Assembly: GCA_963842525.1 (NCBI GenBank)
Contig: CAWJGT010000001.1
Location: 1 to 64,000, forward strand
Source: an uncultured Holophagales bacterium
GTDB lineage: Bacteria > Acidobacteriota > Thermoanaerobaculia > Multivoradales > UBA5704
Length of the DNA stretch: 64,000 nucleotides
Reading direction: 5' to 3'
A program made the translations under genes and the position numbers. Every line of letters starts with the position of its first letter. Position 1 is the first letter of the stretch. Below are positions 560-49,508 of this stretch, in pieces. Below the pieces are notes generated by a model. It worked only from the letters and a program-made list of their open reading frames with translations, was not told where the DNA came from and did no database searches.

Positions 560-588
560 TTGACTCCCTGGAAGCGGAGGCGTATGCT
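560..588 (+). promoter_or_regulatory. sigma70 promoter TTGACT-N17-TATGCT (copy 1)
   Basis: Near-consensus -35/-10 with a 17-bp spacer. Confidence 0.7.
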
Positions 589-667
589 CTTCTAAGTTGA
601 GGGAGGACAGCACGTTAGGGCCGGCAGAACGAAGAGCGCCGATGTGCTTAGCCGGCGCGTAGAAGCC

Positions 668-3189: not shown

Positions 3190-3815
3190 TTGGGGAGCTT
3201 GTATCGTCTTGGCGGAGCTCACGGCGTCTCCCGGGCAAGCTTGCGTTGCCTTGGCCGAGCTTGCGTTGCTTCAGCGGAGCTTGCGCCGTCTCGTCGCAAG
3301 CTTCTGACGCCTTGGCGGAGCTTGTGTCGTCTTGGTGGAGCTTGCCGCGTCTCCGGGCAAGCTTGCGTTACCTTGGCGGAGCTTGCGTTGCCTCAGCGGA
3401 GCTTGTGCCGGCTCGTCGCAAGCTTCTGGCGCCTTGGCGGAGCTTGTGTCGTCTTGGCGGAGCTTGCGGCGTCTCAGTGCAAGCTTACGTTGTCTTGGCG
3501 GAGCTTACGTTGCTTCAGCGGAGCTTACGCCGGCTCGTCGTAAGCTTACGCTGGCTCAGCGTAAGCTCCGCTGGCCCGATGTAAGCTCCGCTACGCCAGT
3601 GTAAGCTTACATCGGCTCGCCGTAAGCTCCGCCAGGCCGTTGCAAGCTCCGCTGGCTCGATGCCAGCTTACGCTGGCTCAGCGTAAGCTCCGCTGGCCCG
3701 ATGTAAGCTCCGCTACGCCGGTGTAAGCTTACATCGGCTCAGCGTAAGCTCCGCCAAGCCGTTGCAAGCTCCGCTGGCCCGATGCAAGCTCCGCCACGCC
3801 GATGTAAGCTTACGG
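3190..3815. repeat. Degenerate 21-bp tandem array arranged as two opposed arms
   Basis: GGCGGAGCTT cores every 21 bp up to ~3540, then complementary AAGCTCCGC cores; centre GTAAGCTTAC (3540-3549). Confidence 0.85.
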
Positions 3816-3915
3816 CGGCTCGCTCGAGGCTCACGACGCACACACCGTCTCGCGCGCCAGGACGACGCCGGTCGTCGCCACGCCGACGTGCCAATTTGCG
3901 CCAGCAGAACTAGAC

Positions 3916-15652: not shown

Positions 15653-15740
15653 GTCATCTCCTCTCGCGAACGCGGATTTCTGTGCTTTTTAGATGCCTTA
15701 TCGTAGCATGGGCCTTGGCCAGTTCCCAAGGAAACCCTCG

Positions 15741-16190
15741 ATGCCGCCGTCCGGAAACAGCCTCCGCCGTGCCTTACGCCGCAGTCCCCGCGAATGGGGT
15801 CTTTTCGCCCGGGCCTGGCTCACCTTGCTCGTCGCGGATCTCTGCCTCCGCTGGCTCTCCTTCCCCCGCGTCGAGCGGCTGTTCGCGCCGTCTCCGGCAC
15901 GGTCGAGGATGCAGGCCGACGACGAGGCAGTGCGGCTCCGGGTCTGGGCCGTCGACGCCGCGGCCCGGCACCATCTGCGCCCCATGACCTGCCTGCCACG
16001 CACGCTCAGTCTGCGCTGGCTCCTCGGCCGGGCGGGCATCCCGACGGACCTCAGGATCGGGGTCGCACGCCAGGGCGGCCGGCTCCTCGCCCATGCCTGG
16101 GTGGAACGGAACGGACAGTCGATCGGTGAGCGCGAAGGGGAGCTGTCGGCCTTCCATCCCCTGCGCGAAGCGTCCTCTTTGCGCCGCTGA
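15741..16190 (+). CDS. Lasso peptide leader peptidase B2 (transglutaminase-like)
   Basis: TCLPRTL, LRIGV, AHAWVE (Cys-His motifs). Confidence 0.9.
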   Translation: MPPSGNSLRRALRRSPREWGLFARAWLTLLVADLCLRWLSFPRVERLFAPSPARSRMQADDEAVRLRVWAVDAAARHHLRPMTCLPRTLSLRWLLGRAGIPTDLRIGVARQGGRLLAHAWVERNGQSIGEREGELSAFHPLREASSLRR

Positions 16191-20600: not shown

Positions 20601-22271
20601 AAGAGATGGTCGAAGGAGTAGTCGCCGTCGCCGCTCGTCGTGGTTGAGAAGAGGACGTTGTCGTCGCCGTCGAGGAGCTCGAGGGTGACGTCGTTGATCC
20701 CATCCTCGCCGGAGTCCTGAACCCCATCGCCGTTGCGGTCGAGCCAGACGCGGTCGCCGATCGAGCCGGTGCCGCGGTAGCCGAAATCGTAGGTGAGGAC
20801 GTTGTCGTCGATCACCGTCTCGGTGAGCTGGACGGGCGTCGTCGCGATGGCGCCGTCGAGCGGCCCGCCGGGATCGGAGTTGCTGGCGGCCACCCGCACG
20901 GTGTAGGTGCCGGCCTCCACCGGGAACGAGTACTGGCCGTCCGCATCCGTCGTCGTCGTCGCGATGACGACCCCCGTGCTCCCCACGAGCTCCACCTCGA
21001 CGCCGGCGATCCCGGTCTCGTTGCTCCCCGACTGGATGCCGTTGGCGTCGAAGTCGCGGAAGACGGTGTCGCCGACCAGGAACGGGCGCAGGGGCACGCA
21101 AGGCACGAAATCGTCGGACACGCACAGCGCTTCGGACGGCAGGCGGACGGCGTTCAGGTTGCTCATGTCCGCACCCTGAACTCTCAGCTCGTAGGTCCCG
21201 GCCGGGACGCTCGTCGTCGTAGCGTCCATGACCGAGGCGTTCGAACGGGTCCGTCGAGATCCGGAACTGCTCCCATTCCTGATTGCCGGACGGGTTGGGG
21301 TTGGTGAAGCTCTGGCTGTCGGGGAACAGGAGCTGCTCAAAGATGGAGGGGGGCCGCAAGAACAGCGCCGCGGCCGGGTTGAGGTCGTCTGGGGGGTTGC
21401 CCGTGCTCAGCCCAAGCCCCGTGGCCACCCCCTCCGGGACTGCGTCGCCCGTCGCCCAGGGGGGCAGGAAGGGAGCGTTCGGCGTGTCGGGATCGTCCGT
21501 GTCCCGGACCACGCCGGAGAAGTCGCCGTGATCGAAATCGCCGTCCCAAACGAAGATCTCGGTCCTCGGCTCCAGGATGTTGAAGAAGAAGCGGAACGTG
21601 CCGTCGTAGGTGGTGGGGACGAAGACCGGGAAGAGGGGATAGATGATCCGCGCCTCGTCCAGGTTCGACAGCGAGGCGATGTAGGAGAAGGGCTGATCTG
21701 CCAGCCGGATGCTGACCACCCCGTCGGTGCGCAGCTTGAAGGCGTTGTAGGACGCGACCGAGTTGTCCAGCAGCTCGATCACCAAGCGGTAGAAGTAGTT
21801 GCCGCTCGGTGCCTGGGCGCCGACACTGGTGTTGATCGGGTAGTCGATCCAGGCATTGCTCGGCATGGTCGAGGAGCTGGTCACCGGGACGCCTGGCGAC
21901 ATCTCGACGACGGTCGCCCCGCTGCCGTCCGCCAGCGGATCGGCGTACAGCGTGAAGCTGTACGGGATGCTGGCGCCGAGGTCCCAGTGCCTCCTGCCGG
22001 TGCCGTCAACTTCGCCGCCGTCGCCGTCGAAGACTCCGAGCGCGAACGAAGTCGCCCCGGCGGGAACCGCGAACTGTACCTCCAGGCGCTCCTCGCTCAG
22101 CGTCACCAAGCCGGTCCCGGACGCGATGACCAGGAACCGCCCATCAGTGGAGCTGCAGCTCGGGAAACATTTGAACTGGCCTTCTGCAGATTGTGCCGCG
22201 AAGGTCCACCCCAGCAGCAGGACCGCTGCCAGGACGAACTTCCTCACCTCTCTATACCCGGGACGGATCAT
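17603..22271 (-). CDS. Large secreted protein (~1550 aa) with multiple SdrD-B-like repeats and three Cys-bounded ~165-aa beta-rich repeats (one-base insertion ~21240)
   Basis: Signal peptide; repeated GDRVWxDxDGDGxQD...DFGY; an extra T relative to the paralog joins ORFs 20535-22307 and 17603-21340. Confidence 0.85.
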
Positions 22272-22444: not shown

Positions 22445-24637
22445 TCAGTCGCGGTGCGGAGCGCAGAGCTGGCCGTTGTTGTAGTTGTCGAGCTGCGTGT
22501 GCCAGGGCGAGGCCTGGGCCCACGCGGAGCTCGAGCCGCCGACGTTGCTGCCCGGCGGATGGGCTGCCATCCAGGCATCCGCCGACGCGGCGGTCTGGTA
22601 GATGCAGGATGGATCGTTGCCTGCGATCAGGCTGAGCTTGGTGGCGACGAGCTGCTTGAACAGGTCGATCGACTTGTCGCCGCGGCTCGGAGTGCCCAGG
22701 AGGACGATCGCCTGGTCGCGCGTGTAGACCACGCCGCCGATGGTGATGGTGCTCACCGGCCAGGCCGCGGGGTGGTTCTTCCAGTAGCCGATGGTGGCGG
22801 TGCCCGGAGCCGGCGGGCGGTAGCCGAAGTCGGCGTCCGTCCGGCTCTGGCCGCCGTTGACCGCCGCGGTGGCGATGTGGGCCGTGCCCGAGCCGTCCAG
22901 GTCATAGGTCTGGGCCATGCCGGCCGGCAACGTCGAGGAGACGACCTTGACCTTGTAGGTGCCGGCCAGGAGGTTGGGGAAGGTGTAGTTGCCGTCCCCG
23001 GCCGTCACCGCGGAGGCGATGACGTTGCCGGCGGTGTCGAGGAGCTGCACGGTGACCCCGTTGATCCCCACCTCGCCGGCGTCCTGGACGCCGTCGCCGT
23101 CGTAGTCGAGCCAGACGCGGTCGCCCAGAGAGGCGGTGCCGCGGTAGCCGAAGTCATAGGTCAGGACGTTGTCGTTGACGACCGTCTCGGTGCGCTGGTT
23201 GCCAGTCGTGGAGATGGTGCCCGCGAGCGGCCCGCCGGGGGCGAAGTTGGAGGACGCAGGCTGGATGGTGAAGGTGCCGGCGTCCACCGGGAACGAGTAG
23301 TGGCCGTTGGCGTCCGTGGTCGTCGTCGCGATGACGGTCCCCAGCGATCCCAACAGCTCCATCACCACGCCGGAGATCCCGGTCTCGCCGGCGCCCGACT
23401 GGATGCCGTTGGCGTCCGGGTCGCGGAAGACCGTGTCGCCGACCAGGAACGGGCGCAGGGGCACACAGGGCACGGATTCCTCCGACACGCACAGCGCCTC
23501 GGACGGCAGGCGGAGGGCGTTGAGGTTGCTCATGTCCACGCCCTGGATCCGCAGCTCGTACGTCCCGTCCGGGACGCTCGTCGTCGAGGCGTCCATGACC
23601 GAGGCGTCGAACGGGTCCGTGGAGATCCGGAACTGCTCCCACTCCTGGTTGCCGGACGGGTTGGGGTTGGTGAAGCTCTGGCTGTCCGGGAAGATCAGTT
23701 GCTCGAAGATGGAGGGTGTGCGCAGGAACAGGGCGGCGGCTGGGTTGAGGTCGTCCGGGGGATTGCCCGTGCTCAGCCCGAGCCCCGTGGCCACCCCCTC
23801 CGGGACGGCGTCGACCGTCGCCCAGGGGGGCAGGAAGGGAGCGTTCGGCGTGTCGGTGTCGTCCGTGTCCCGGACCAGGCCGGCGAAGTCGCCGTGGTCG
23901 AAGTCGCCGTCCCAGACGCTGATCTCGGTCATCGGCTCGGCGACGTTGAAGAAGAAACGGAACGTGCCGTCGTAGGTGGTGGGGACGAAGGCCGGGAAGA
24001 GGGGATAGATGATGCGCGCCTCGTCCAGGTTCGACAGCGAGGCGATGTAGGAGAAGGGCTGATCCGCCAGCCGGATGCTGACCACTCCGTTCGTGCGCAG
24101 CTTGAAGGCGTTGTACGACGAGAGCGAATTGTCCAGCAGCACGATCTCCAGGCGGTAGAAGTAGTTGCCGCTCGGCGACTGGGCGTCGACGCTGGTGTTG
24201 ATCGGGTAGTCGGCCCAGGCGTTGCTCGGCATCGTCAGCGAGCTGGTCACCGGGACGCCCGGCGACATGTCGACGATGGTCGTCCCGCTGCCGTCCGCGA
24301 GCGGATCGGCGTACAGCGTGTAGCTGTAGGGAATGTTGGCGCCGAGGTCCCAGTGCCGCTTGCCGGTGCCGTCGAGCCCGCCGCCGTCACCATCGAAAAC
24401 GCCGAGCGTGAACGAGGCCACCCCGGCCGGGACCGCGAACTGCACCTCCAGGCGTTCCTCGCTCAGTGTGACGAGGCCGGTCCCGGAGGCGATGACCAGG
24501 AACCGTCCATCGGTCGAGCTGCAGCTCGGAAAGCACTTGAGCTGACCTTCTGCGGGCTGCGCCGCGAAGGCCCATCCCAGCAGCAGGACCGCTGCCAGGA
24601 CATACCACGTACCCTTTGTTCTCACCGGACAGATCAT
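22445..24637 (-). CDS. Secreted SdrD-B-like repeat protein, paralog of 17603-22271 with a different C-terminal TIGYWKNH domain
   Basis: GGAGGA RBS; N-terminal domain nearly identical to the neighbour; two SdrD-B repeats. Confidence 0.85.
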   Translation of the reverse strand: MICPVRTKGTWYVLAAVLLLGWAFAAQPAEGQLKCFPSCSSTDGRFLVIASGTGLVTLSEERLEVQFAVPAGVASFTLGVFDGDGGGLDGTGKRHWDLGANIPYSYTLYADPLADGSGTTIVDMSPGVPVTSSLTMPSNAWADYPINTSVDAQSPSGNYFYRLEIVLLDNSLSSYNAFKLRTNGVVSIRLADQPFSYIASLSNLDEARIIYPLFPAFVPTTYDGTFRFFFNVAEPMTEISVWDGDFDHGDFAGLVRDTDDTDTPNAPFLPPWATVDAVPEGVATGLGLSTGNPPDDLNPAAALFLRTPSIFEQLIFPDSQSFTNPNPSGNQEWEQFRISTDPFDASVMDASTTSVPDGTYELRIQGVDMSNLNALRLPSEALCVSEESVPCVPLRPFLVGDTVFRDPDANGIQSGAGETGISGVVMELLGSLGTVIATTTTDANGHYSFPVDAGTFTIQPASSNFAPGGPLAGTISTTGNQRTETVVNDNVLTYDFGYRGTASLGDRVWLDYDGDGVQDAGEVGINGVTVQLLDTAGNVIASAVTAGDGNYTFPNLLAGTYKVKVVSSTLPAGMAQTYDLDGSGTAHIATAAVNGGQSRTDADFGYRPPAPGTATIGYWKNHPAAWPVSTITIGGVVYTRDQAIVLLGTPSRGDKSIDLFKQLVATKLSLIAGNDPSCIYQTAASADAWMAAHPPGSNVGGSSSAWAQASPWHTQLDNYNNGQLCAPHRD

Positions 24638-24793: not shown

Positions 24794-26035
24794 TCAGGAG
24801 GGCGGCGTTCTCGCGAAAAGGCCACGCTCTTGCAAGGTCTTGAAGAAGCGCGAAAGGTCCGTAGCGAGGGTCTCGTCCGGGACGTGGTAGCGCGCGTGGA
24901 GAAGGCGGAGTGCGGGAGCCAGATCGCCTCCCCGGAGGAGCGCCCACCACATGGCATGGGCCGTCCCGAGCAGGCGGAAGACCTCCCCGGTGTCGAGCCG
25001 ATGGACGATCGTCTCGCCGCGGCGCCAGGCGAACAAGACCGCGGGCGCGGGGCGCCAGGGTCCGGTGCCCCGCGGCTGGACCTGGATGCGGGAGCGCGGC
25101 ACGGCGGCCTGTCCCGCGCCCCGCTTCAGGCAGCGCTCCGGCGGCACCAGCTTCCAGCCAAGCTCCACCTCCGCAGTCTCGGGGTTCCAGACCACGCGGT
25201 CGGGTTCGTTCCAGGGGAAGGCAATGCGCTCGCAATCGCCGAGCCAGTACCGGCCGGGGCCGAGCCGCTGCTGCCAGCGCTCCCGGGCCTCGGCCCAGGC
25301 TCCGGCGAGGCGGTCGGGTCCCTCGTCCCGGAGGTCCTGGCCGGCGATGCAGACCAGCACCCGCGGCTCCCGGGCCTGCAACGCTTCGCGCAGAGCCGGA
25401 TGGGAGTAGAGATGGGCAAAGATCACTCGCGGGGCGATGCAGCGGCCGAGAAAGGCGGCGAACCGGGCGCCACTCAAGGAGCAGTCGTCAACGACGACCA
25501 AGGGCTCTTCGCCGTCCTCTGGAGCCGCGAGCACCCGGTCGGCCGGCACGTCGAGGTGAGCGGCCAGCAGGCCGAGGACGATCAATCCTCCCCGCGGGAT
25601 CGCCGTATAGCGGAAGCCCCGGACCTGCGTGATTCCGTACTGCCGGATGAGCTCGCCGGCAAGCCGCCTGACCGCCGTCTCCACCTCCGGGTATCCCACG
25701 CAGCGAAGACGGCCGGGCGCGCTTTCGAAAGCGCGCGCCTGGTAGAGGAGATGGGCCGGATTCATTCCGGTCTCCCCGGCGATGATCCCGATCACCGGGT
25801 CGGGCGCGGGACGCAAGGCGAAGGTGATCCCGGGGAGGCTGCGCCATGGCTCGCTGCCGGCGAGAGCCCGGGCGAGCGCGATCAGCGCGGAGCGATCGCT
25901 GCGCAACCCGAGGCTGCGACGATAGTGTCGAAGGGAGGGAGTGTCGAACCGGAGGATGCAGACGAAGGAGGGTTCCTCACCGCGCTGATCAGATGGCGGC
26001 TCCCGCTCAAACGGCCTTGGTGGTGAGGAGGTCAT
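24794..26035 (-). CDS. Phosphoribosyltransferase-like domain fused to a C-terminal PqqD/RRE
   Basis: AIPRGG and LVVVDDCSLSG (type I PRTase motifs); C-terminal LDTGEVFRL...MW...LHARYHVPDETLATDLSRFFKTLQERGL. Confidence 0.75.
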   Translation of the reverse strand: MTSSPPRPFEREPPSDQRGEEPSFVCILRFDTPSLRHYRRSLGLRSDRSALIALARALAGSEPWRSLPGITFALRPAPDPVIGIIAGETGMNPAHLLYQARAFESAPGRLRCVGYPEVETAVRRLAGELIRQYGITQVRGFRYTAIPRGGLIVLGLLAAHLDVPADRVLAAPEDGEEPLVVVDDCSLSGARFAAFLGRCIAPRVIFAHLYSHPALREALQAREPRVLVCIAGQDLRDEGPDRLAGAWAEARERWQQRLGPGRYWLGDCERIAFPWNEPDRVVWNPETAEVELGWKLVPPERCLKRGAGQAAVPRSRIQVQPRGTGPWRPAPAVLFAWRRGETIVHRLDTGEVFRLLGTAHAMWWALLRGGDLAPALRLLHARYHVPDETLATDLSRFFKTLQERGLFARTPPS

Positions 26036-26198
26036 AGTCCACGGCAGCCCCGGCGCCGCCGCGCGTGAGCTCCAGGAGCGAGCCCCACTCGATGAGCTGG
26101 GGAGCGCTGTACTTCTTGCGCGGGCGCCGTCCCGGGCCCGGGCCCGGACCAGCGTCCGGCCTGGGCCATGGACCGTGGCTTGCCATATCCTCAGACAT
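26007..26198 (-). CDS. Lasso peptide precursor (63 aa); predicted core GGAGAAVDYDLLTTKAV
   Basis: GAGGAG RBS; leader KKYSAPQLIEWGSLLELTR with YxxPxL and Thr(-2); core G1 with D8 acceptor. Confidence 0.9.
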   Translation of the reverse strand: MSEDMASHGPWPRPDAGPGPGPGRRPRKKYSAPQLIEWGSLLELTRGGAGAAVDYDLLTTKAV

Positions 26199-27957
26199 CT
26201 CTGACTCCTCTCGACACCCCGCTGAAGGATGACACCGGCTCATCCGAAGCCGTTGGATTCGACACCTCTTCCCGCGAGCGCAGCCAGGATTCGGCACAGA
26301 GAAAACCGATCAGTCGATGCGGCGGCGCGAGCCGGTCCGTGCTCGACCAGTACGCCTCCCACTCCGCGCGCAACCCGTCGCCGGACGCCAGGCCGGACTG
26401 GACGACCCGCGAGCCCGCGAGGAGGCCCAGCACCCGGCTCTTCTCGCGGTCGCGCAGCCCGCGGTGCTGGAGCTCCGCGAAATGGGCCAGGCTCGTCCGT
26501 TGCCGCACCTCCTCGGGGAGGATCCCCCGCATCGACTCGCGCAGGATCCACTTGATCCAGCCGTCGCGGAAGCGGACCCGCGCCGGCACGGCGAGGAGGA
26601 AGTCGATCACCCGCCGGTCGAGGAAGGGGAGGCGGACCTCGACCCCGGCATGATCCGCGGCGATCCGCAGGGCCGCGAGCTTCGCCGAGAACGTCCCCTC
26701 GGTCAGATAGCGGAAGCTCTCCTGCGCGGCGAGCGTCGGCAGCGGCGGCATCACCTGGGGCCGGCCCGCGCGGGGTGTTCGGGGGGCGCGGCGGGCGAGC
26801 CGGCGTACCGCCTCCGGCACCGCCGGCCGGACATAGGCGTCCAGCAGGAGCCCCGCGGTTGTCCGCCGGCTGTAGCGCCGGAAGTGGGGAAGCTCGGCGA
26901 GCAGCCGCCGCGCCTCCACGTCGCGCAGCTCGAAGGGCTTGTGGTAAGGCTCCCCGCTCAACACCTGGTCGCCGCCGATTCCGGCGAGCACGATCCGGCA
27001 GCCGTCTTGGCGGGCCTGCCGCAACGGCCGCAGGAGCAGGGCGCGGGTGATGCCGACCTCGGGTTCGGCCTGGGGATAGCCCTCCTCGCCGCCGAGCTCG
27101 CGCAGGCCCCAGCAGTCGTCGCTGGGGATGCAGGTCATCCGCGCCCGCGGGCAGCGGCGGGCGACCGCCTCCGCAAACTCCCGCTCCTCGGCTCCTGGCG
27201 TTTCGGCAAACACGGAGGAGTAGAAATGGAGGTCGATGTCCGATTCCAGGTGATGGGCCGCGCAGGCGATGGCCGAGGAGTCGAGACCGCCGCTCACCAG
27301 GAAACCCACGGGGCCCGGGCCGCGCAGACGGCTGCCGACCGCGGCGAGGAAGATCTCGCGGAAGCGCTCCACGTACTCCTCGTCCCGGCGCAGCGGAGGG
27401 CCCGGCTCGGCGCCGAACGTCCAGTAGCGCGACAGGACGAGCCGCTCGCCCTCCACAACCATCCAGTGGGCCGGTGGCAGCCTCTGGACGCCGTGGTAGG
27501 GCGTCTCCGCGATCCAGCGGTCGAAGCGCCAGGCAAGGAGGTCGCGCAGGAACGGCTCGTTCACCGCGGGAGGAGACTCCAGGGCAGCCAGCACGGCGTC
27601 CAGGGTCGAGGCGGCGGTCAGCCGGCGGCGATCCAGCGCGTAGTAGAACGGACGGACCCCGAGGGGGTCGCGAGCGCAGAAGAGGCGCCGCCGGCGCGCA
27701 TCCCAGAGAGCGAAGGCGAAGTCGCCGATCAGCCGGCGCGGGCAGTCCTCCTCCCAGCGCTCATAGGCGGCGAGGACGATCTCGGCATCGGTGGCCGTGC
27801 GCTCGTCCACCGCACCCCCGAGCTGGGCGCAGAGCTCCGGCCGGTTGTCGAGGCGCAGGTCCGCGGCGATCCACAGGCCGCGGCCGGCAAGCCCGACCGG
27901 CTGGCCGGGCTGGACCGCGGCCCCGTCGCGCGCGAAGACCGCGGCGAATCCGCTCAC
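26191..27957 (-). CDS. Lasso cyclase (asparagine-synthetase-like C protein)
   Basis: GDFAFALWD, ARDPLGVRP, SGGLDSS, GIGGD, RLPFLD; no N-terminal catalytic Cys; overlaps the precursor start. Confidence 0.9.
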   Translation of the reverse strand: MSGFAAVFARDGAAVQPGQPVGLAGRGLWIAADLRLDNRPELCAQLGGAVDERTATDAEIVLAAYERWEEDCPRRLIGDFAFALWDARRRRLFCARDPLGVRPFYYALDRRRLTAASTLDAVLAALESPPAVNEPFLRDLLAWRFDRWIAETPYHGVQRLPPAHWMVVEGERLVLSRYWTFGAEPGPPLRRDEEYVERFREIFLAAVGSRLRGPGPVGFLVSGGLDSSAIACAAHHLESDIDLHFYSSVFAETPGAEEREFAEAVARRCPRARMTCIPSDDCWGLRELGGEEGYPQAEPEVGITRALLLRPLRQARQDGCRIVLAGIGGDQVLSGEPYHKPFELRDVEARRLLAELPHFRRYSRRTTAGLLLDAYVRPAVPEAVRRLARRAPRTPRAGRPQVMPPLPTLAAQESFRYLTEGTFSAKLAALRIAADHAGVEVRLPFLDRRVIDFLLAVPARVRFRDGWIKWILRESMRGILPEEVRQRTSLAHFAELQHRGLRDREKSRVLGLLAGSRVVQSGLASGDGLRAEWEAYWSSTDRLAPPHRLIGFLCAESWLRSREEVSNPTASDEPVSSFSGVSRGVRDV

Positions 27958-28462: not shown

Positions 28463-30818
28463 ATGGCTCCTGCGGGTGCGGCGGCGGCCGGTCCTGCGCC
28501 CGGGTTGCGGGTACGGCTGCTGGGCGGATTCGAGGTCTGGCACGGCGACCAGCCGGTCGGCGGCTTCGAGTCGCAGAAGGTGCGGGCCCTCCTCGCCTAT
28601 CTGGTCAGCCACCCCGACCGCGGCTTCAGCCGTGAGAGCCTCGCCGGGCTGCTCTGGCCGGACCGCGACCCCGAATCGGCCCGCCACGCCCTGCGCCAGG
28701 CAGTCTACAACATGAAGGCAAGCCTGCCGGACAACAGCCCGGGGGAGCCGCCCATTCTCAGCGACCATCTCGGCCTGCGGTTCAACGCCCGGTCGGGTGT
28801 CTGGGTGGACGTGGCGGCCTTCGAAGACGCCCTGCGCCGGGGCCGGGAGCAGGACAGCGTGGACCCCCACCACCTCTCGGCGGCCGTGCACCTCTACCGC
28901 GGCCAGCTCCTTGCCGGCTTCTTCCTCAAGGACAGCGAGTCGTTCGAGGAGTGGCTCGTGGCCGAGCAGGAGCGGCTCCGCGAGGCGGCCCTCGACGGTT
29001 TGCGCACGCTCATCGAGGTCTACCGGCGGCGCGGCGAGCACCGCCTCGGCATCCACTATGCCCGCAGGCTGATCGCCATCGAGCCGCTCTCGGAGGAGAC
29101 CTGCCGCGACCTCATGCGGATGTGCGCCCGGGCGGGCCGGCGCAGCCTGGCCCTGGCCGAGTACGAGCGGCTGAAAGGCCTGCTGGCGCGGGAAGCTCGG
29201 CGTGGACCCCCTGCGGGAGACGCGGGACCTCCATCAGTCGATCCTCCTCGACACCGCCGAGGAGGAGGTCCCCTTGCGCGACGACGCCCCGATCGGCCCT
29301 CTCGTCCCGCTGGCCGGCCGGGTCGAGCCCCTGGCCCTGCTGCGCACCGCCTGGAAGCGGGTGCTCGGCGGCGCGGCGCAGCTCGTCCTGGTGACCGGCG
29401 AGGCGGGGGTCGGCAAGACGCGCCTGATCAAGACCTTCCTCGACGTCGCAACGTCGCAGAAGTGGGCCGCGGTGCTCAAGGGGAGCTGCTTCGAACGCGC
29501 GCCGGTGGTGCCCTACCGGGCCGTGGCGGAGATGCTGGCCAGCGTCGTGGCGGACCCCACTGAAGCCGCCGAGCGGGTGCTGGCCCTGGCCGGCCCGGAG
29601 CAGCTCGCCGACGTCGCCCGGCTCTGCCCCGCCCTGCGCGACCTGCGCCCGGACCTGCCCGTTGCCGCGCCGCTGGCCGGCGCAGCGGACTGCAGCCGCT
29701 TCTTCGCGTCCGTCGCCGGCTTCGTGGCAGGCCTCTGCACCGGCGGCAGGCCGTCGTCTCCACAGCCGGTCATCCTCTTCCTGGATGACTTCCACCTGGC
29801 CGACCAGGACACCCGAGCGCTCCTCGACCACCTCGTCGTCGATCTCGCGGACCTCCCTGTGCTGGTGGTCGTCGCCAGCCGCTCCGCCGGGGCGGGGGAG
29901 GCCTTCCTGCTGCAGTCGGCCGGCGCCGGGGCTTCCCGGATCGACCTGGGGCGCCTCTCCGCGGCGGCGGTCCAGGAGATCGCCGGCTCCCTGGTGGGCG
30001 AGGAGCAGTTGGCCGTGCTGGCCCGCCTCCTGGACGAGCGCGGCAGCGGCCTGCCCCTGGCCGTGGCCGAGCTCATCAACCACTTCTGGGACGAGGGCCT
30101 GCTCATCCCGCAGGGCGGGTCCAGGTGGCGGCTGGCCGAGGCGCTCGACGAGCGCCTCGTGCCCCGCGGCGAGCCCCTTCAGGAGCTGGTCGCCGCGCGC
30201 ATCCGCCGCCTCCCCAGCTCGACCCGCCGGCTGACGGCCCTGGCCGCGGTGGCCGGTCACGCCTTCGACTCCGGGCTCCTGGAGAAGGCTGGGGACGAGC
30301 ACGCCGCCGTCGTCGAGATCGGCCTCGAGGTCCTGCTCCGGCGCTGGCTGATCCGCCAGCGCCTCCAGCACTGGGCGAGCGGCCGGCGGCAGCGCGACAT
30401 CGTGCTCTGGAGCGAGGGCGCCCGCCGGGGCAGCTTCGAATTCGCCCATCCGGTTCTCCACGACCTGATCTATGAAGAGATCCACCCGCTGCGGCGGCAG
30501 GTCCTGCACGGCGAGGTCGCCGCCGCCCTGGAAGACCTGCACGGCGGCCAGGTGGACCGCGTCTGCGAGGTCCTGGCCCACCACTACACGGCGGCGGGCG
30601 TCTGGGGCAAGGCCTGGCTCTATCTGGAGATGTCGGCCCGGCGGGCCCGCGACCTCCTGGCCCGGGACGCCGCCCGCCACCATGGCCGTCTGGCCCTCCA
30701 GGTCCTCGACCGCCTGGAGGCCGCCGCCCCGGGCGACGGCGCCTGGCGCGAGGCCCGCCGGCTTCTCGAAGACCTGCTGAGCGAGATGTCCGGTCCGGAT
30801 CCCGAAGCTGCCGCCTAG
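28463..30818 (+). CDS. SARP/AfsR-type regulator (wHTH-BTAD + AAA ATPase), frameshift ~29195
   Basis: LLGGFEV, KVRALLAYL, LYRGQLL, FEEWL, EPLSEE; GEAGVGKTRL, LDDFHLAD, FAHP. Confidence 0.88.
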
Positions 30819-31717
30819 CCGCACTTGCCGGGATCCGGGTCGAGGAGCTCGCGGTAGGGCTCGCCGCGCGCACAGCCGAACCGGGCGGCGAGCTCCGACA
30901 ATCTTGTTTCGAGCGCCTCCCGGTGCAGCGGGCTGAGCTCGCGGCCGGATCCGGCCTTCCCCTGGCGGATCACCCCCGGGAGACCCGGCCGGGCGTCCAG
31001 GAAACGGCTGTCGAGCTTCTCCTCATGCCGCTTCATGAAGCCGAGGCCGCACCGCTCGACGATCCGCGCCAGATCCTCCTCACGCAGGGGAAGGCCGCAG
31101 AAGCGGGCGACGCGGCGGGCGGTGCCCGCGAGGTCGGCGACGATCTCCTCGTAGCTCAGGAAGAGGACGTTCGGGTCGTGGCGGTGGGGCCACCAGGACC
31201 GCAGGTGCTGGAACCAGGTCGAGGAGGCGCCCCAGCCCTGGCGCAGGAACTCCTCCGTGAATGCCTCCAGGCTGGCTGTCTTGCCGAGCAGGCGCGCGTG
31301 GTGGAAGGCCGACACCGCCACGTCCCGCACGTCGCGCACGACGTAGATGAACCGGCCCTGGCGCGGGAGCTGGCGGCGGAGCAGGTGCGTCTTGAAATAC
31401 CGGGGAGAGGTGAGCGCCTCCAGGCGGTCGGCGCCGTTGCGCAGGAGCTCCCGCTCGATCCAGGGGCAGACGTCGTCGATGTGCGCGATGTCGTCCATGC
31501 CGCCGCCGGTCGTAAGCTGGTACAGCATCATCTGCATCAGCGTCGTGCCCGACTTGGGATAGGTGACGAGGAAGACGTCGTCCGGCCGCGGCCGGCAGAT
31601 CCCCCAGCCGATCCGGTACATCAGGGAATGCTGGAGTGCATGCCCGGTCCGCAGGAGGAGCGCCGGCACCGGCATCAGCGCCCTCCAGACCTTCGTCGAG
31701 AGCTTCCGTCGACCCAC
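30815..31717 (-). CDS. PAPS-dependent sulfotransferase (Sulfotransfer_1 type)
   Basis: TYPKSGTT, KTHL, RDVRDVAVS, LSYEE. Confidence 0.9.
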   Translation of the reverse strand: MGRRKLSTKVWRALMPVPALLLRTGHALQHSLMYRIGWGICRPRPDDVFLVTYPKSGTTLMQMMLYQLTTGGGMDDIAHIDDVCPWIERELLRNGADRLEALTSPRYFKTHLLRRQLPRQGRFIYVVRDVRDVAVSAFHHARLLGKTASLEAFTEEFLRQGWGASSTWFQHLRSWWPHRHDPNVLFLSYEEIVADLAGTARRVARFCGLPLREEDLARIVERCGLGFMKRHEEKLDSRFLDARPGLPGVIRQGKAGSGRELSPLHREALETRLSELAARFGCARGEPYRELLDPDPGKCG

Positions 31718-42833: not shown

Positions 42834-43054
42834 CGGGCCGCCCTTTCCTCAACCCTCCGTACCTCAGGAGACCGTGGCCGGCGCCGGCGTATGGGACGTA
42901 TGGGCTTGGGCGCCAATGCCTTGCGGGCGATCTTGGCGCAGCGGGGACAGTCCAGCAGGTGGAGGACGAAACCGGCGTCGGAAGTCGGCAGGGCCCGCAG
43001 CATCTCCCGCAGATCCCCTGCCTTCGGATGCTTCCATCCCTGCCTCTCAGCCAT
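42830..43054 (-). CDS. Small zf-HC2/anti-sigma-like zinc-finger protein
   Basis: HPKAGDL...HLLDCPRC. Confidence 0.5.
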   Translation of the reverse strand: MAERQGWKHPKAGDLREMLRALPTSDAGFVLHLLDCPRCAKIARKALAPKPIRPIRRRRPRSPEVRRVEERAAR

Positions 43055-43277
43055 GCAGAACATCCTCCGGATCGAGCCGGTGGGTGCGCGGGCGGTCCGC
43101 CAGGCTCCAGATAGGCGCGGTGACCGCCACACACACCCGGCAGCCGGTCAACAGATGACGCACGACGGCACGCCGTTCGGGGTGGTCGGACTCCCCGCGC
43201 AGGAAGCGTTCGAGCTGCCCCTCTCCGGGATGCCTGGTCGACCGGTCCGCCTGCGCGGCGGCTCTCTCCTTGAACAT
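43047..43277 (-). CDS. Small zf-HC2/anti-sigma-like zinc-finger protein
   Basis: GAGGAG RBS; HPGEGQLERFLRG...VVRHLLTGCRVC. Confidence 0.6.
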   Translation of the reverse strand: MFKERAAAQADRSTRHPGEGQLERFLRGESDHPERRAVVRHLLTGCRVCVAVTAPIWSLADRPRTHRLDPEDVLHG

Positions 43278-43522: not shown

Positions 43523-44964
43523 ATGGCGGACGAGATCCCATTGGAGTCCCGGGCGTTGCGGCAGATGCGGGAGGCCCATGGTTGGAAGGGCTACCAGTTG
43601 GCTGCGGCCCTCGGCATGACGCCGGAGTCGCTGTACCACTATGAGGCAGGGGACACGATGACGCCGTCGCCGGAGCTTCTGGAGCTGGCTGCTGCGAAGA
43701 TGGGCTACTCGGAAGCCATGGTGGACCGCACCTTCACCTATCTGCGGCTCGCGGACGCCGACCTGGCCCTGGGCGCGTCCGCCGCCGGGCCAGCGCACCG
43801 GGAGCTGCGGCAGGCCGCCGCCGAGATGGGCCTGCTCTGGGAGGAGGTCAACGTCTCGATGGGGCTGCGCGCCGGGATCCGGCTCGACGCGCAGATCGAG
43901 CGGCGGCGCGCGCCGGACCTGTGGGAGCGCCTGAAGAAGCACACGTCCGCGCAGCGGCGGGCGGTCTATCAGGAGGACGAGGACTACCGGAGCTGGGGCC
44001 TGATGGAGGTCCTCTGCCAGAAGAGCCTGGACGCTGCGCGGGACAACGCCCAACGGTCCCTGGAGCTGGCCGAGGAAGCCCTTTTCCTCGCCCGCCTCGT
44101 GGACGTCCCCGAGCTCTTCCGGCTGCGCCTGGAAGGTTTCGCCGGCATCCACGTCGGCAATGCCACCCGCGTGGGGGGCCACCTGCCACCGGCCGCCGCG
44201 GCGTTCGACGAGGCGCTCGACCGCTGGAAGGCCGGCGCCCCGGGCGACCCCGAGGGCCTGCTCGACGAAGTCTCGCGTGCTCGATCTCGAGGCGTCGCTG
44301 CGCCGCGACGCAGCGACGCCTGCCCGAGGCGCTCCACCTCCTCGAGCGTGCCCTCGCCGCCGACCGTACCGGCACCCGAGCAGGCCACATCCTGGTCATT
44401 CGGGCCAAGACTCTCGAAGAGATGGGAAGGAACGACGAGGCCGTCGCTACCCTCCAGCAGGCCCTGCCGCGGATCGACGCCCTTCGCGAGCCCCGGCTGC
44501 TCTGGGACGTGCGCCAGAACCTGCTGGTCAACCTGGGACGCATGGGCCGCGCCGCCGAGGCCGAGGGGCCGCTGGAGGACCTGCGGAAGGAGGCCCTCCG
44601 CCGCGGCAACCGGCTGGACTTGACGCGGCTCGTGTGGCTTCGCGGGACCCTCGACGCCGGCCTCGGCCGGCCCACGCAGGCCGAACGCGCGTTCGAGCAG
44701 GCGCGAAAGGAGTTTCTGGCGAGCGGCATCGCCTACGACGCCGCCCTGGTCTCCCTGGAGCTGTCCGTCCTCTACCTGGGCCAGGAGCGGACGGCGGAGG
44801 TGAAGGATCTCGCCCGCGAGCTCGCCCCGGTCTTCCATCTCCAGGGGGTCTCGCGCGAGACCCTGGCCACCGTCAAACTGTTCCGCGAAGCCGTGGAGAA
44901 GGAGACGATCACGATGGAGCTGGCGCAACAGCTCCTGGCCGATCTGCGCCGTGCAGGATCTTGA
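43523..44964 (+). CDS. XRE-HTH + TPR regulator (frameshifts ~44270-44315)
   Basis: ALRQMREAHGWKGYQLAAALGMTPESLYHYEAG; TPR-like helices; YDAALVSLEL. Confidence 0.8.
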
Positions 44965-44968
44965 GCTG

Positions 44969-45035
44969 TTTCCCCCTCTCCCGTTCGGGGCGGTTGGCCG
45001 GTGGCCGTCCGGGAGAGGGGGCCAGGGGGTGAGGG
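44969..45035. repeat. REP-like palindrome between convergent genes
   Basis: CCCCCTCTCCCG...CGGGAGAGGGGGCCAGGGGGTGAGGG. Confidence 0.65.
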
Positions 45036-45037
45036 AT

Positions 45038-45424
45038 TCAGTCGATGCACCGGCCGAACGGGTCGACCGAGCATCCAGCATCGCCCGTCGTGGGAGCACC
45101 GGAGGTGCCTTCGCCCGTGCCCGGGATGCACCGCCCGTTCGGGTCGACTGAGCATCCAGCATCGCCGGTCGTGGTGGCGCCGGAGGTGCCGCTTCTCGTG
45201 CCGGGGATGCACCGGCCGAACGGGTCGACCGAGCACCCGTTCTCACCCCACAGGGAGGTGAGCGCGTTCCAGAAGCGGGTGAGGAGGTCGAGCCGGGCCC
45301 ACTCGAAGGTGCCGGCGCGGTCCGGGCCGGGGAGGGTCCGCGGCGGCTCGGCCAGCGCCCACGAGGCGGCGAGAGACCCGGCGAGCAGCAGGACCGCGAT
45401 CTTGCGGCGGAAGGACGTGCTCAT
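45038..45424 (-). CDS. Secreted peptide precursor with three GxxGCSVDPxGRC cores
   Basis: AAGGAG RBS; signal peptide ending ALA; FWNALTSLW helix; three repeats at 27-aa (81-bp) spacing. Confidence 0.85.
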   Translation of the reverse strand: MSTSFRRKIAVLLLAGSLAASWALAEPPRTLPGPDRAGTFEWARLDLLTRFWNALTSLWGENGCSVDPFGRCIPGTRSGTSGATTTGDAGCSVDPNGRCIPGTGEGTSGAPTTGDAGCSVDPFGRCID

Positions 45425-45549
45425 GCGCAGCTCCTTTCGGGGCTGCCGCCGGCCCGGGCCGCCATGGCCACGGCGGCGGCGCCCGCAGAATTATGGTGCG
45501 ATCCAGGAGCCGGCACCGCGACAACCCCAGGTTTTCGGAGGAGACGACC

Positions 45550-46987
45550 ATGAAAACCCTACGCGGGCGGCCCGGCCTCGGCGCCGCCCTGGCCGCGGTC
45601 CGGATTCTCCAGGGAAAGAGCCGCCCGGAGGTGGAACGGGACGCCCGCCTCAAGCCGGGCACCCTCTCCACCTATGAAGAAGGCCGGACCACGCCGCAGC
45701 CGGCCACGCTGGAGCGCATCGCCGCCGCTCTCGGCGTCTCCATTCCGGTGCTGATCGCCCTCGGCGACCTCCTGGCCGCCTTTCACGGGCTCCTCGGCGG
45801 CGCCTGGATCGCCGGCGTCATCCGCTCTGCGATCCGGCTTGCGCGGGCCGTCCACGCCGCGCTGTCTGCGCGGGTCGAGGCCATACCCGTGGCACCTCCT
45901 TGCGTCAGCCTGCTCCCCGCCGAGGAGGAGCGGCGGCAGGCTGCGGAGCTGTGGCAGCGGCTCGAAGCGTACACGGCCGACCAGCGGCGCGCGATCTACC
46001 AGGAGTCACCGCGCTTCCAGAGGTGGGGCCTGGTGGAGATCCTCTGCCAGAAAAGCCTGGACGCCGCGCGGGACAGCGCCCAGCGGTCCCTGGAGCTGGC
46101 CGAGGAGGCCCTCTTCCTCGCCCGCCTCGTCCCCGAGCCCTTGCGCCAGCGACGTGGAAGGCTTTGCCAGCATCCATATCGCAAACGCCACCCGCGTGGG
46201 GGGCCAACCGCGAGCGGCCCGCGTCGCGTTCGACCAGGCCCTGGACCGCTGGCAGGCTCGGCGCTCCGGGCGACCCTGAGGGCCTGCTCGACGAATCTCG
46301 CGTCCTTGATCTTGAGGCGTCTTTGTGTCGCGCGGAGCGCCGCCTCCCCGAGGCGCTTGACCTCCTTGACCGCGCCCTCGCCGCCGACCGCGGCGGCGTC
46401 CGGGCGGGCGCATCCTGATCATCCGAGCCAAGACCCTGGAAGAGCTGGGCAGGAACGAGGAGGCCGTCGCCACCCTCCAGCAGGCCGTGGCGCGGATCGA
46501 CGCCGAGCGTGAGCCCCGGCTGCTCTGGGACGTGCGCCAGAATTTGTTGGTCAACCTTTGCCGGCTCGGCCGCCATGCCGAGGCCGAGCAGTCGCTGGGG
46601 GACCTGCACATCGAGGCGATGCAACTCGGCAACCGGCTGGACTTGACTCGCGTCATATGGCTCCGCGGGACCATCGACGCCGGCCTCGGCCGGCCTGAGG
46701 CGGCTGAAGCAGCCTTCGAGGAGGTGCGGAAGGATTTCCTGGCAGACGGCATCGCCTACGACGCCGCCCTGGTCACCCTGGAGCTGGCCGTTCTCCATCT
46801 GAAGGAAAGGCGCACGGCCGAGGTCCAGGAGCTGACCCGCCAGCTCCTCCCGGTCTTCAAGGCCCAGCAGGTCTCCCGAGAAGCCCTCGCTACCGTCAAG
46901 CTGTTCTGCGAGGCCGTGGAAAAGGAGACCATCTCCGTGGAGCTCGCGCAGGGCTTTTTGGACGACCTCCGCCGGGTTGGGGCGTGA
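45550..46987 (+). CDS. XRE-HTH + TPR regulator, paralog of 43523-44964 (frameshifts ~46150-46415)
   Basis: GGAGGAG RBS; TLSTYEEGRTTPQPATLERIAAALGV; WGLVEILCQKSLDAARD and EPRLLWDVRQNLLVNL shared with the paralog. Confidence 0.8.
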
Positions 46988-47005: not shown

Positions 47006-47881
47006 TCAGAAGCGGAAAAGGACGCCGACCTCCGGGGCCACGTCCGGAGCCTGCTCGGTGAGGCCGACGCCGCAGTTGAGCTTGAGGAAGGCCCGTGGGG
47101 AGAAGAACCACTGGGCCTCGCCGATCAGGAAGACGTCTTCGGTCTCGCCCTCGACCGCCGCGACGAGGCGCCAGCCCGGCGAGACGCGCTTCAGGTACTC
47201 GACGGCGTACTCGCCCAGCTCGACCTGGCTTTCCTCGCCGTCGTAGGCGATCGTCGCGCGTCCCGTGATCGTTCCCCAGCGATAGCCGCGGATCACTCCG
47301 AAGCCGAGCTTCCCCTCCCAATCGTGGGTGCCGATGAGGACCTCGTTCTTCTGGAACGGGAAGACGACCTCGAGGAAGCTGAACAGCTCCGGGCGATCCG
47401 CGGTCTCCTCCTGCCAGCGCCAGCGGAGCTGGGCCTCGACGTCGCCCAGCCCGGACTCCTCGAGGTGGGCGGGAACGGCGCTCGGGTCGTCGGCGGCCTT
47501 GTCGAACGTCGCCTTGGTGTAGACGGCGCCTTCGAGCTCTACCGCGAGACGGTCCGAGATCCCGTAGGCGAGGAAGAGCAGGTATTCGTGCTCGACCAGC
47601 TTGCCGAGGAAGTCGTCGCTGCCCACGAACCCGAGCTCTCGTGGCTGATACTCGAAGGCGGTCGTCTTTGAGTACTCATAGAACGGATAAACCAGGATCT
47701 CGCCCTTTTCGACAAAGGTGCCGAAGGAGGACGTCGAGAGACCCCGGCCCCGGTCGGAGAGGTATTCCGGCAGCTCCGGATCCTGGGCGCCGAGCGGCGC
47801 ACCGGCCGCGAGCACTGCAACGGCCGCCAGTACCATCCGGCAGGCAGACCGGGCTCCGCACTTCGAACCGGACCGGCGCAT
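47006..47881 (-). CDS. Putative outer-membrane beta-barrel protein
   Basis: Signal peptide, SGLGDVE, terminal GVLFRF. Confidence 0.65.
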   Translation of the reverse strand: MRRSGSKCGARSACRMVLAAVAVLAAGAPLGAQDPELPEYLSDRGRGLSTSSFGTFVEKGEILVYPFYEYSKTTAFEYQPRELGFVGSDDFLGKLVEHEYLLFLAYGISDRLAVELEGAVYTKATFDKAADDPSAVPAHLEESGLGDVEAQLRWRWQEETADRPELFSFLEVVFPFQKNEVLIGTHDWEGKLGFGVIRGYRWGTITGRATIAYDGEESQVELGEYAVEYLKRVSPGWRLVAAVEGETEDVFLIGEAQWFFSPRAFLKLNCGVGLTEQAPDVAPEVGVLFRF

Positions 47882-48056
47882 GGTGAGGCTCCTTTCTCCG
47901 AGGCTGCCGCTGCATTGCGCACCTCCTCTTCCGTTGGATGCACGAAGCGAGAAAGTCCTTCGCGGAGGAAACCTCGATTCGGCAGGATCTCGCAGCCGGA
48001 TCGCGCCGGGGCCGGGTGCGGTAGACTTATCCTTTCGACGCGAAACGAGGTCTACC

Positions 48057-49508
48057 ATGCTCCAACGCACCCGCTTGCACGGACCGCTCGCGGTCCTGTT
48101 GCTGTCAACCCTGTCCCTGAGCCTCGGCTGCTCGGTCAATCCGGCGACCGGCAAACAGCAGCTCAACTTCTACAACGAGGCGGAAGAGATCGAGATGGGC
48201 CAGCAGGCCAACGCGGAGATCGTCACCTCGGTGGGGCTCTATGACGATCCCGAGCTGCAGGCCTATGTCGAGGATCTGGGGATGAAGATCGCCGCCGCCT
48301 CGGAGCGGCCGCATCTGCCCTGGAGCTTCAAGATCGTGGACGATCCGGCGGTCAACGCCTTCGCCCTGCCCGGCGGCTACGTTTACATCACCCGCGGGCT
48401 CCTGACCCACCTCGAATCCGAGGCAGAGCTGGTCTCGGTCCTCGGCCACGAGGTCGGGCACGTCACAGCCCGCCACGGCCTCAATCAGCAGAGCAAGCAG
48501 GTGCTTGCCATCGTCGGCATCGGCATCGCCGCGTTCCTCGACCCCGACCTCGAGGAGCTGGCCGGAGTCGCCGGCCTCGGCATGTCGCTGCTCTTCCTCA
48601 AGTATGGCCGGGACGACGAGCGCCAGGCCGACGACCTCGGGCTGCGCTACATGGTGCGCACCGGCCACGACCCGCGCCACATGCCCGAGCTCTTCTCCGT
48701 CCTCGAGGGGGTGGCGAAGGTCGAGGGGGTGGGCCGGCTGCCGAATTGGCTGTCGACCCATCCGAACCCGGGAGCCCGCCGCGAGCGCATCCAGAAGGAG
48801 GTCGACGCCCTGCCGGGGGATTTCAGCCAGGCCGTGGTCAACCGCGACGGCTACCTGCGCCGGCTGGATGGCGCGGTCTTCGGCGACAACCCGCGCGACG
48901 GCTTCTTCGAGGGCAACGCCTTCGTGCATCCGGACCTGCGTTTCCGCATCGAGTTCCCCGACGGTTGGGAAACCGCCAACGAGACAGCTTCGGTTTCAGC
49001 GTCGCAGCCGGGCGGCAACGCCGTGGTCCAGGTCGCACTGGCGGAGAAGGGCACGCCGAAGGAGGCCACGGACGAATTCTTCGCGGCAGAGGGGGTGACC
49101 CGCGGCGAATCCTGGGAGAAGCGGGTCCACAGCCTGCCGGCCCAGTGGAACCGTTTCGATTATTCGGACGGTGACAGCGAGCTGCACGGCACGGTCGCCT
49201 TTGTCCAGCATGAGGGAAAGGTCTTCCAGCTCCTTGCGCTCGCCGCGCCGAAAGAGTGGACAGACAACCAGGAGTCCATGGAGGAGGCGCTCGCCACCTT
49301 CTCCCGCCTCGACGATCCGGAAGCCCTGAAATCCCAGCCGAACCGCCTGAAGCTGGTCGAGATCCGCAAGGAGATGACCCTGGAAGAGTTCAACCGCCAG
49401 TACCCGTCCGCCGTGGAGATGCCGACCCTGGCCCTGATCAACCACGTGCAGCCGACCGATCCGATCCCGGCGGGGTCGCTGGTCAAGCGGGTCGTGAAGG
49501 CTCCTTGA
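48057..49508 (+). CDS. M48 family metalloprotease lipoprotein
   Basis: LGC lipobox, NAFALPGG, HEVGH, ERQAD, LSTHP. Confidence 0.92.
   Translation: MLQRTRLHGPLAVLLLSTLSLSLGCSVNPATGKQQLNFYNEAEEIEMGQQANAEIVTSVGLYDDPELQAYVEDLGMKIAAASERPHLPWSFKIVDDPAVNAFALPGGYVYITRGLLTHLESEAELVSVLGHEVGHVTARHGLNQQSKQVLAIVGIGIAAFLDPDLEELAGVAGLGMSLLFLKYGRDDERQADDLGLRYMVRTGHDPRHMPELFSVLEGVAKVEGVGRLPNWLSTHPNPGARRERIQKEVDALPGDFSQAVVNRDGYLRRLDGAVFGDNPRDGFFEGNAFVHPDLRFRIEFPDGWETANETASVSASQPGGNAVVQVALAEKGTPKEATDEFFAAEGVTRGESWEKRVHSLPAQWNRFDYSDGDSELHGTVAFVQHEGKVFQLLALAAPKEWTDNQESMEEALATFSRLDDPEALKSQPNRLKLVEIRKEMTLEEFNRQYPSAVEMPTLALINHVQPTDPIPAGSLVKRVVKAP

Follow-up and report, generated by a model that had tools for sequence, protein, structure and literature searches.

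A multi-core exported peptide and its HTH-TPR regulators form a lineage-specific cassette family in Acidobacteriota that may work like RRNPP peptide signalling

The first 64,000 nucleotides (forward strand) of contig CAWJGT010000001.1, from assembly GCA_963842525.1 of an uncultured Holophagales bacterium (Acidobacteriota) and hereafter called the window, contain a small gene for an exported peptide precursor, which lies between two genes for regulators combining an N-terminal XRE-type helix-turn-helix (HTH) with C-terminal tetratricopeptide repeats (TPR). The features of this locus are collected in Table 1. An initial annotation, made from the sequence alone, had described the layout as one regulator gene convergent with the peptide gene and one divergent from it, and had read the precursor as a Sec signal followed by a Trp helix and three C-x7-C cores separated by G/T/S linkers. 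Both descriptions are borne out, the first by HTH_31/HTH_3 and TPR matches on either side and the second by an intact open reading frame (ORF) of 128 aa.

Residues 1-25 of the precursor read by inspection as a Sec-type signal, with a basic n-region (RRK), a hydrophobic core and A-L-A preceding E26; the signal-peptide calls in this study were made by inspection. The signal is followed by a proline-rich stretch, an amphipathic Trp-rich helix (F40-W59) and three Cys-loop units, C64-C72 (CSVDPFGRC), C91-C99 (CSVDPNGRC) and C118-C126 (CSVDPFGRC), each a C-x7-C loop. The complete unit can be written G-D/E-x-G-C-S-V-D-P-[F/N]-G-R-C-I-P-G-T, with linkers of G, T and S in between. In an AlphaFold2 (AF2) model based on 41 relatives, helices span residues 3-24 and 40-60 and each Cys loop forms a β-hairpin; the confidence is modest (predicted local distance difference test, pLDDT, 67), and the linkers, at pLDDT <50, are disordered. 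The precursor has no family in Pfam or NCBIfam, and the GC content at third codon positions of its gene (0.90) matches that of the neighbouring genes.

Table 1. Features of the peptide-regulator locus, in window coordinates
Feature	Position	Strand	Description	Basis
Peptide precursor gene	45038..45424	-	intact, product 128 aa	ORF call, repeat search, AF2, codon GC
Signal peptide of precursor	45350-45424	-		
Trp helix of precursor	~45245-45307	-		
Cys loops of precursor	45209-45235, 45128-45154, 45047-45073	-		
81-nt tandem repeat	45044-45286		the three cores; copies 83% and 63% identical to the first	
Conserved element, ~80 nt	45422..45502	-	immediately 5' of the peptide start codon	alignment of 22 upstream regions
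Reg1, XRE-HTH/TPR regulator	43523..44964	+	convergent with the peptide gene	Pfam HTH_31 1.7e-10, TPR_12 1.7e-08, on two pieces
Reg2, XRE-HTH/TPR regulator	45550..46987	+	divergent from the peptide gene	Pfam HTH_31 7.1e-11, TPR_16/TPR_12
Inverted repeat	44972..45021	strand-neutral	17-nt arms, 88% complementary, 16-nt spacer	
N-terminal remnant of an HTH-less type B TPR regulator	43059..43238	-		tblastn with two type B regulators, E 2e-4, 4e-4

As to the two regulators, the domains named in the initial annotation are present, with HTH_31/HTH_3 at the N-termini and TPR_12/TPR_16 at the C-termini, but neither gene is intact, a point that had been overlooked. Comparison with intact paralogs shows that Reg1 is broken by two +1 shifts between ~44269 and 44311 (frames 43523-44269, 44270-44310 and 44311-44964) and Reg2 by three frameshifts (45550-46134, 46154-46260, 46260-46409 and 46412-46987). 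With an intact peptide gene beside two shifted receptor genes, this copy is probably decaying, leaving an orphan signal gene, unless the shifts are errors of assembly. We favour decay because indels are not widespread in the assembly and the neighbouring genes are intact; rpoB lies in a 1375-aa open frame, and 2 of ~24 TonB-receptor loci are split. That all five frameshifts arose in assembly, both receptors being intact in the organism, seems to us somewhat unlikely. It would suit a genome of an uncultured-type lineage in 34 contigs, the tendency of multi-copy families to polishing errors and the split TonB-receptor loci, yet the five shifts fall inside 2.9 kb and outside long homopolymers, while the peptide gene, the two genes after Reg2 and rpoB are all intact. 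Moreover, fragmented paralogs are common in the regulator family (by a rough count, about one-third are fragmented or short), as expected under rapid turnover. In public sequencing data, 8% of the sampled words occur in a single soil-metagenome DNA run, whose six short contigs miss every frameshift site; no RNA run is listed. Separately, identical cassette copies occur at contig ends (C9:3995-4405 and C18:2597-3007; C8:907-1215 and C10:32941-33249), and some cassettes therefore sit in DNA that is repeated or was duplicated recently, and at which the assembly breaks.

The locus is one member of a large family within the 9.95-Mb genome. A six-frame scan for the motif C..[DE]P.G.C found 29 open stretches, 16 of them with two or three loops, and a hidden Markov model built from true members recovered 63 ORFs at E ≤ 0.01, or 62 peptide-family ORFs once a seed that is not a member (C9:1572634) was dropped. 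A signal peptide and a Trp helix occur in every family member, together with between one and four x-x-[ILV]-D-P-x-G units; cysteines flank the DPxG core in only part of the family, many members having no Cys at all, and of the 54 precursors whose start could be assigned, 18 have [DE]PxG as their very last residues. Searches by tblastn with four in-frame pieces of the window regulators located 94 regulator paralogs. The initial annotation had suggested a genome-wide linkage scan, and its outcome is strongly positive: 55 of the 62 peptide-family ORFs lie within 1500 bp of a regulator locus, although only ~3.9% of the genome is that near to one. Pairing of peptide and regulator is thus a trait of the family, beyond chance.

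The cassettes come in two layouts. In type A, to which the window locus belongs, one or two HTH-TPR genes are accompanied by an adjoining Cys-loop peptide gene on the other strand, whereas in type B a mostly Cys-free peptide gene is placed directly upstream, on the same strand, of an HTH-less TPR protein whose N-terminus mostly carries an H-x4-C-x2-C motif. Assignment of this N-domain to the zf-HC2 (ZAS) anti-sigma family is not supported, as PF13490 (H-x3-C-x2-C) matched none of three proteins at E ≤ 0.01 and one at E 1.7, and no sigma factor gene is among the recurrent cassette neighbours. A small standalone XRE-HTH gene (~150-190 aa) stands beside nine type B loci, for instance L022:6591-7070 (+) and C19:107513-108055 (-), and its product is a possible DNA-binding partner of type B sensors. 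The neighbours that recur within 6 kb of 52 cassette loci are limited to regulators, small HTH proteins and histidine kinases, the last near five cassettes, which we take as chance for so large a family. By eye, many regulators of both types share a C-terminal tail, (A/R)(Q/R)HDPxL(R/K)FE, that is absent from the two copies in the window.

The conserved element upstream of the peptide gene is common to the two layouts. Its pattern, GCACC.T..T ... CGGCC-ATGG-nGGCC ... AAGGAG, recurs at type A and type B loci alike in the 22 aligned upstream regions. An nhmmer search with the element gave 24 matches in the genome, 22 upstream of family ORFs and two upstream of degraded family genes; since 22 of these are the training rows, the new information lies in the extra matches and in the lack of any elsewhere in the genome. 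The element also occurs at four loci of three other genera (L062, L064, L065, L084). With regard to its nature, the RNAalifold consensus contains no pairs and Rfam gave no match, a sigma-54 -24/-12 site was rejected by eye against the consensus on spacing and the GC element, and a sigma-70 scan returned no sites. Judged from this conservation, it is a candidate control site, whether a promoter, an operator or a site for a shared controller.

Relatives in other genomes place the cassette in one lineage. The peptide alone, as a query, retrieved 22 close relatives from a set of 5.8 billion proteins, and a profile of both peptide types matched 4400 representatives of metagenome clusters at E ≤ 1e-3 and 1363 at E ≤ 1e-10; the nearest ESM Atlas clusters are all Acidobacteriota proteins annotated as "hypothetical protein". 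Among 201 sampled genomes of the class, 19 have peptide matches, a count that includes the genome studied here and one unpublished genome from which we draw no conclusion, and all four other genomes of the same family have 17-24 each among the matches listed. Of 27 peptide-centred loci in 18 other genomes, 16 have a regulator relative within 1.5 kb, in the same order in 15; of the 11 unlinked loci, all but one belong to a single other family, whose 10 loci match the profile in its repeat part alone.

Starting from the regulator gave a similar result. An alignment of the regulators searched against species-representative genomes found 343 relatives, and among the best 73 loci, which were examined and come from ~43 assemblies by accession prefix, a peptide-family ORF lies in the 2-kb flanks of 70, and of all 51 where the flanks are complete. 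In the commonest orientation, seen for 46 of the 74 ORF matches, the peptide ORF converges on the regulator gene's end. All 73 loci are named Thermoanaerobaculia, Thermoanaerobaculaceae, Thermoanaerobaculum, Acidobacteriota or Holophagales, and in the large protein set the regulators have at least 424 type A and at least 78 type B relatives, from metagenome-assembled genomes (MAGs) of Thermoanaerobaculia, annotated only as "helix-turn-helix", "tetratricopeptide repeat" or "hypothetical". No phage relative of the regulator appeared in viral-contig scans or in tblastn of deposited phages, searches that reach close relatives only. The window locus is one copy of a lineage-specific Acidobacteriota cassette whose relatives are named Thermoanaerobaculia. 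Apart from the cassettes, three exported metagenome proteins of 670-780 aa (P0147, P0148 and P0157), with no Pfam family, contain dozens of central xxDPNG[KR] units, preceded by an N-terminal domain and followed by a VDEWDxEVVKR repeat region at the C-terminus; these proteins may be polyprecursors, or may indicate that the DPxG unit is a structural repeat.

The receptor is a TPR superhelix joined to an output domain, which is an XRE HTH here and a Cys-containing, HTH-less N-domain in the second cassette type. HTH_31/HTH_3 matches occupy residues ~10-70 of both window genes and of all eight intact type A paralogs, and of none of three type B proteins. In the AF2 model of the closest intact paralog (C9:1870555-1872000(-); pLDDT 91.5), the HTH is followed by two linker helices and a TPR superhelix at residues 126-479, and the protein has neither a signal peptide nor a membrane helix, as in cytoplasmic receptors of the TPR type. 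Comparison of the sensor superhelix with the PDB, by Foldseek and then VIA-align, ended in a tie at Z 20-21 among LGN (4wnd, Z 21.4, root-mean-square deviation 4.3 over 291 residues), NprR (5dbk, Z 21.1 over 300 residues; 4gpk, Z 20.0) and Rap (RapJ-PhrC 4gyo, Z 20.8; RapF-PhrF 4i9c, Z 20.5; phage Rap 8rtc, Z 21.0).

Where a cassette has two regulators, their sensor halves have stayed alike and their HTH halves have not. Over the last 300 residues, identity within each of the five intact two-regulator loci is 70-99%, compared with a median of 41% for pairs from different loci, and over the N-terminal halves it is 31-48%; Reg1 and Reg2 of the window likewise share 72-74% of the sensor half and 47% of the N-half. 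In a tree of 28 HTH domains, 14 of the 15 HTHs from divergent genes fall in one group, with two label changes against 9.5 in shuffles, none of 500 shuffles being as low. HTH classes that follow gene position, together with matched sensors, indicate that the arrangement of convergent regulator, peptide and divergent regulator is old. Within each locus the sensor halves have been kept matched, which fits two outputs reading one locus-specific signal. The initial annotation had assigned two core variants (F and N) to two receptors, and this is contradicted by nearly matched sensor halves joined to diverged HTH halves.

RRNPP quorum-sensing systems are defined, in the available text of PMC10075063, by two genes, for a receptor and an adjacent propeptide. 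The cassettes described here may constitute an RRNPP-like peptide/receptor system in a diderm phylum, without detectable sequence relation to RRNPP proteins, a reading by analogy that we hold with about even confidence. Since no such relation was detected, the claim is that the cassette works like an RRNPP system, not that it is a member of the family; of the RRNPP-like signalling in a diderm that had been proposed at the outset, the analogy of layout is strengthened by linkage and fold. From the anatomy, linkage, conservation and fold established above, we infer by this analogy a course of export, processing, re-import, binding and regulatory output. The precursor would be exported through Sec and lose its signal peptide, after which the Trp-helix pro-region and the disordered linkers would be cut off to release the cores. 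These, present in several near-identical copies per precursor, would build up outside and then re-enter the cell, where they could bind the concave face of the TPR domain and so alter DNA binding by the two regulators, with one sensor specificity and two HTH classes. For control of this circuit, the conserved upstream element is a candidate site. Several traits of the peptides fit a processed signal, namely the Sec-like signal, the disordered linkers, the precursors that end exactly in [DE]PxG, and tandem cores that resemble one another more within a precursor than between precursors (identity 0.459 against 0.226 at the four variable core positions, none of 2000 shuffles reaching the within-precursor value). 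An outer membrane is indicated by 26 TonB-receptor matches in the genome, and an Opp/Dpp-like substrate-binding protein with an ATP-binding cassette permease is encoded on contig C28. Two of the three SBP_bac_5 (OppA/DppA-like) genes in the genome (C9:403483-405072 and C1:375095-376558) lie 2-3.5 kb from cassettes, maybe by chance, and one of these two adjoins a dCache histidine kinase.

Several points weigh against such a system. Both receptors of the window copy are broken, and roughly one regulator paralog in three is fragmented or short. TPR superhelices are common, and in the structure comparison the LGN match equals those to RRNPP proteins, so that the predicted fold alone would not single out RRNPP. 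In sequence, the regulator profile has 188 PDB matches, of which the best 60 are generic HTH and TPR proteins only, with no RRNPP protein among them; likewise, no NCBIfam model comes near its cut-off for the regulator, and the Pfam matches are to generic HTH and TPR families. The greater likeness of cores within a precursor could also be produced by recent tandem duplication. Mantel correlation of peptide with regulator divergence is no stronger for the sensor half (r 0.67) than for the HTH half (r 0.62; n=10), so that the correlation shows co-duplication only. The upstream element is alike across paralogs, which is more easily squared with one common controller than with an operator private to each cassette. 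Neither a protease nor a transporter is recurrent beside the cassettes, and by analogy inward passage of a peptide would have to cross two membranes. Complex prediction for the TPR part of the intact paralog and the mature precursor gave a score of 0.02 and a mark of 0.32, with no controls, and is evidence neither way.

The chief rival is that the cassette consists of a regulator and its target only, the HTH-TPR protein controlling an adjacent exported effector (for example an antimicrobial, adhesive or ion-binding protein of the periplasm or cell surface) while its TPR domain senses something else. The linkage data fit this account equally, and the conserved element upstream of the peptide genes suits it; so do the dozens of DPxG units in the 670-780-aa exported proteins and the small DPxG proteins that one family of the class has without a regulator neighbour (10 of 27 loci). 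We nevertheless consider it unlikely, because it leaves unexplained why sensor halves stay 70-99% identical within a locus as HTH halves diverge, why one type of effector would need ~55 diverged private pairs, and why many precursors end exactly at the core motif.

A second possibility is a secretion-coupled partner switch, in which the TPR domain would bind unexported precursor in the cytoplasm, for example through the Trp helix, and export would free the regulator. Type III secretion TPR chaperones act as co-activators in this manner (IpgC-MxiE, SicA-InvF). Apart from the cores, no part of the precursor is as widely conserved as the Trp helix, and no import step would be necessary; the TPR part also has weak NCBIfam matches to the type III secretion chaperone SctY (E 5.6e-4 and 1.6e-3), but these lie far under the cut-off and amount to generic TPR similarity. 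We regard the switch as improbable, as Sec substrates are short-lived in the cytoplasm and dozens of diverged pairs would all report one and the same event. Weakest of all, and very improbable, is the alternative raised in the initial annotation of a multi-core ribosomally synthesized and post-translationally modified peptide matured in trans, for tandem cores with conserved Cys and a lasso-peptide-like cluster (Asn_synthase, PqqD, transglutaminase-like) 18-30 kb off in the window are outweighed by an N-terminus that is a Sec-type signal and not a leader, by the many family members entirely without Cys, and by the absence of any recurrent maturase or other modifying enzyme within 6 kb of the 52 cassette loci.

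Taken as peptide/receptor cassettes, the loci are closest in outline to NprR-NprX and PlcR-PapR of the Bacillus cereus group, which likewise have a cytoplasmic receptor, its XRE-type HTH at the N-terminus and its TPR superhelix at the C-terminus, encoded next to a small gene for a Sec-type exported propeptide. In NprX- and PapR-type propeptides, the active part is at or near the C-terminus. Unlike those systems, the Acidobacteriota cassettes belong to a diderm phylum and not to Bacillota, and they have no detectable sequence relation to them; their precursors are tandem and multi-core, here with C-x7-C loops, the peptide gene lies on the opposite strand and has a shared upstream element, and a peptide usually has two receptors, which carry different HTH classes on a single type of sensor. 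Rap-Phr systems of Bacillus, its phages and plasmids are alike in the many diverged receptor/propeptide cassettes per genome and in an HTH-less TPR receptor acting on other proteins, which parallels type B, in addition to the structural match (Z 20.5-21.0). Rap acts as a phosphatase or anti-activator. By placing two kinds of output on one kind of sensor, the Acidobacteriota cassettes parallel the contrast between Rap and NprR/PlcR. In contrast to Rap-Phr, the type B peptide gene is upstream on the same strand, and the N-domain carries H-x4-C-x2-C instead of the Rap three-helix bundle.

Further likenesses are found in eukaryotes. Yeast alpha-factor and FMRFamide-type precursors are multi-copy pheromone and prohormone precursors, and as in these, one exported precursor holds tandem near-identical peptides separated by spacers, with the last copy at the stop codon; the xxDPNG[KR] proteins also resemble such polyprecursors. 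The present precursors differ in being bacterial and in being paired with cytoplasmic and not membrane receptors. LGN/Pins, the best structural match, has a TPR groove that binds extended peptides, judging from PDB titles, but is a eukaryotic scaffold with neither an HTH nor a paired peptide gene.

Peptide quorum sensing through cytoplasmic TPR receptors is presented, in the available text of PMC10075063 and PMC7564271, as belonging to Gram-positive Bacillota and the mobile elements they carry. Occurrence in Bacillota is not what we see, as all named relatives are Thermoanaerobaculia, Acidobacteriota or Holophagales MAGs, and no description of such cassettes in Acidobacteria was found in the literature, including the available text of PMC10075063; publications on a "DPNG motif" concern GH32 enzymes. 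The two-gene RRNPP logic appears in an uncultured-type diderm lineage as obligately linked, hugely expanded, unannotated cassettes, ~55 of them in this one genome. If the signalling reading is correct, cytoplasmic-receptor peptide quorum sensing would extend beyond Gram-positives and would need peptide uptake across an outer membrane; were the peptides signals, soil Acidobacteria would gain a cell-cell language, which raises the question of re-entry through two membranes. More tentatively, and with rather less than even confidence, one Acidobacteriota order, mainly one family, may run a large private repertoire of peptide channels, with dozens of cassettes per genome, prohormone-like multi-copy precursors (at the extreme, polyprecursors with dozens of xxDPNG units) and paired receptors that pass one signal on to two DNA-binding outputs. 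Given the lack of a detectable sequence relation to Firmicutes RRNPP, these cassettes may have arisen independently. The signalling claim is directly testable on the intact paralog loci, and if it holds, many orthogonal peptide/regulator pairs would be on offer for circuit design.

Other features of the window were noted in passing. The inverted repeat sits in the 73-nt gap separating the two convergent stop codons and is a possible bidirectional terminator; it has no T tract and is not among the sites listed by a terminator scan of the window. The type B remnant, within ORF 43047-43277, retains the H-x4-C-x2-C motif with no TPR part after it and no Pfam family. A second cassette lies ~40 kb away at the window start (2-955 (-) and 3808-4887 (+)), with a TPR-regulator paralog and two peptide-family ORFs, one at 671-955 and the other, which is degraded, at 2-667; each ends in units of the GHGI[DE]P.G type. 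Just past Reg2 are genes for a protein resembling an outer-membrane barrel (47009-48166(-), which matches Phenol_MetA_deg weakly at E 1.5e-3) and for an M48 peptidase that is exported (47718-49505(+)), neither recurrent at other cassettes. Asparagine-synthase-like, PqqD-domain, transglutaminase-like and sulfotransferase genes are found at 15693-16187(+), 24797-27462(-) and 30818-31675(-), a set that we take to be typical of a lasso-peptide cluster. Finally, two large proteins of 1208 and 730 aa, encoded at 17606-21229(-) and 22448-24637(-), carry SdrD_B / CarboxypepD_reg repeats and are probably surface proteins.

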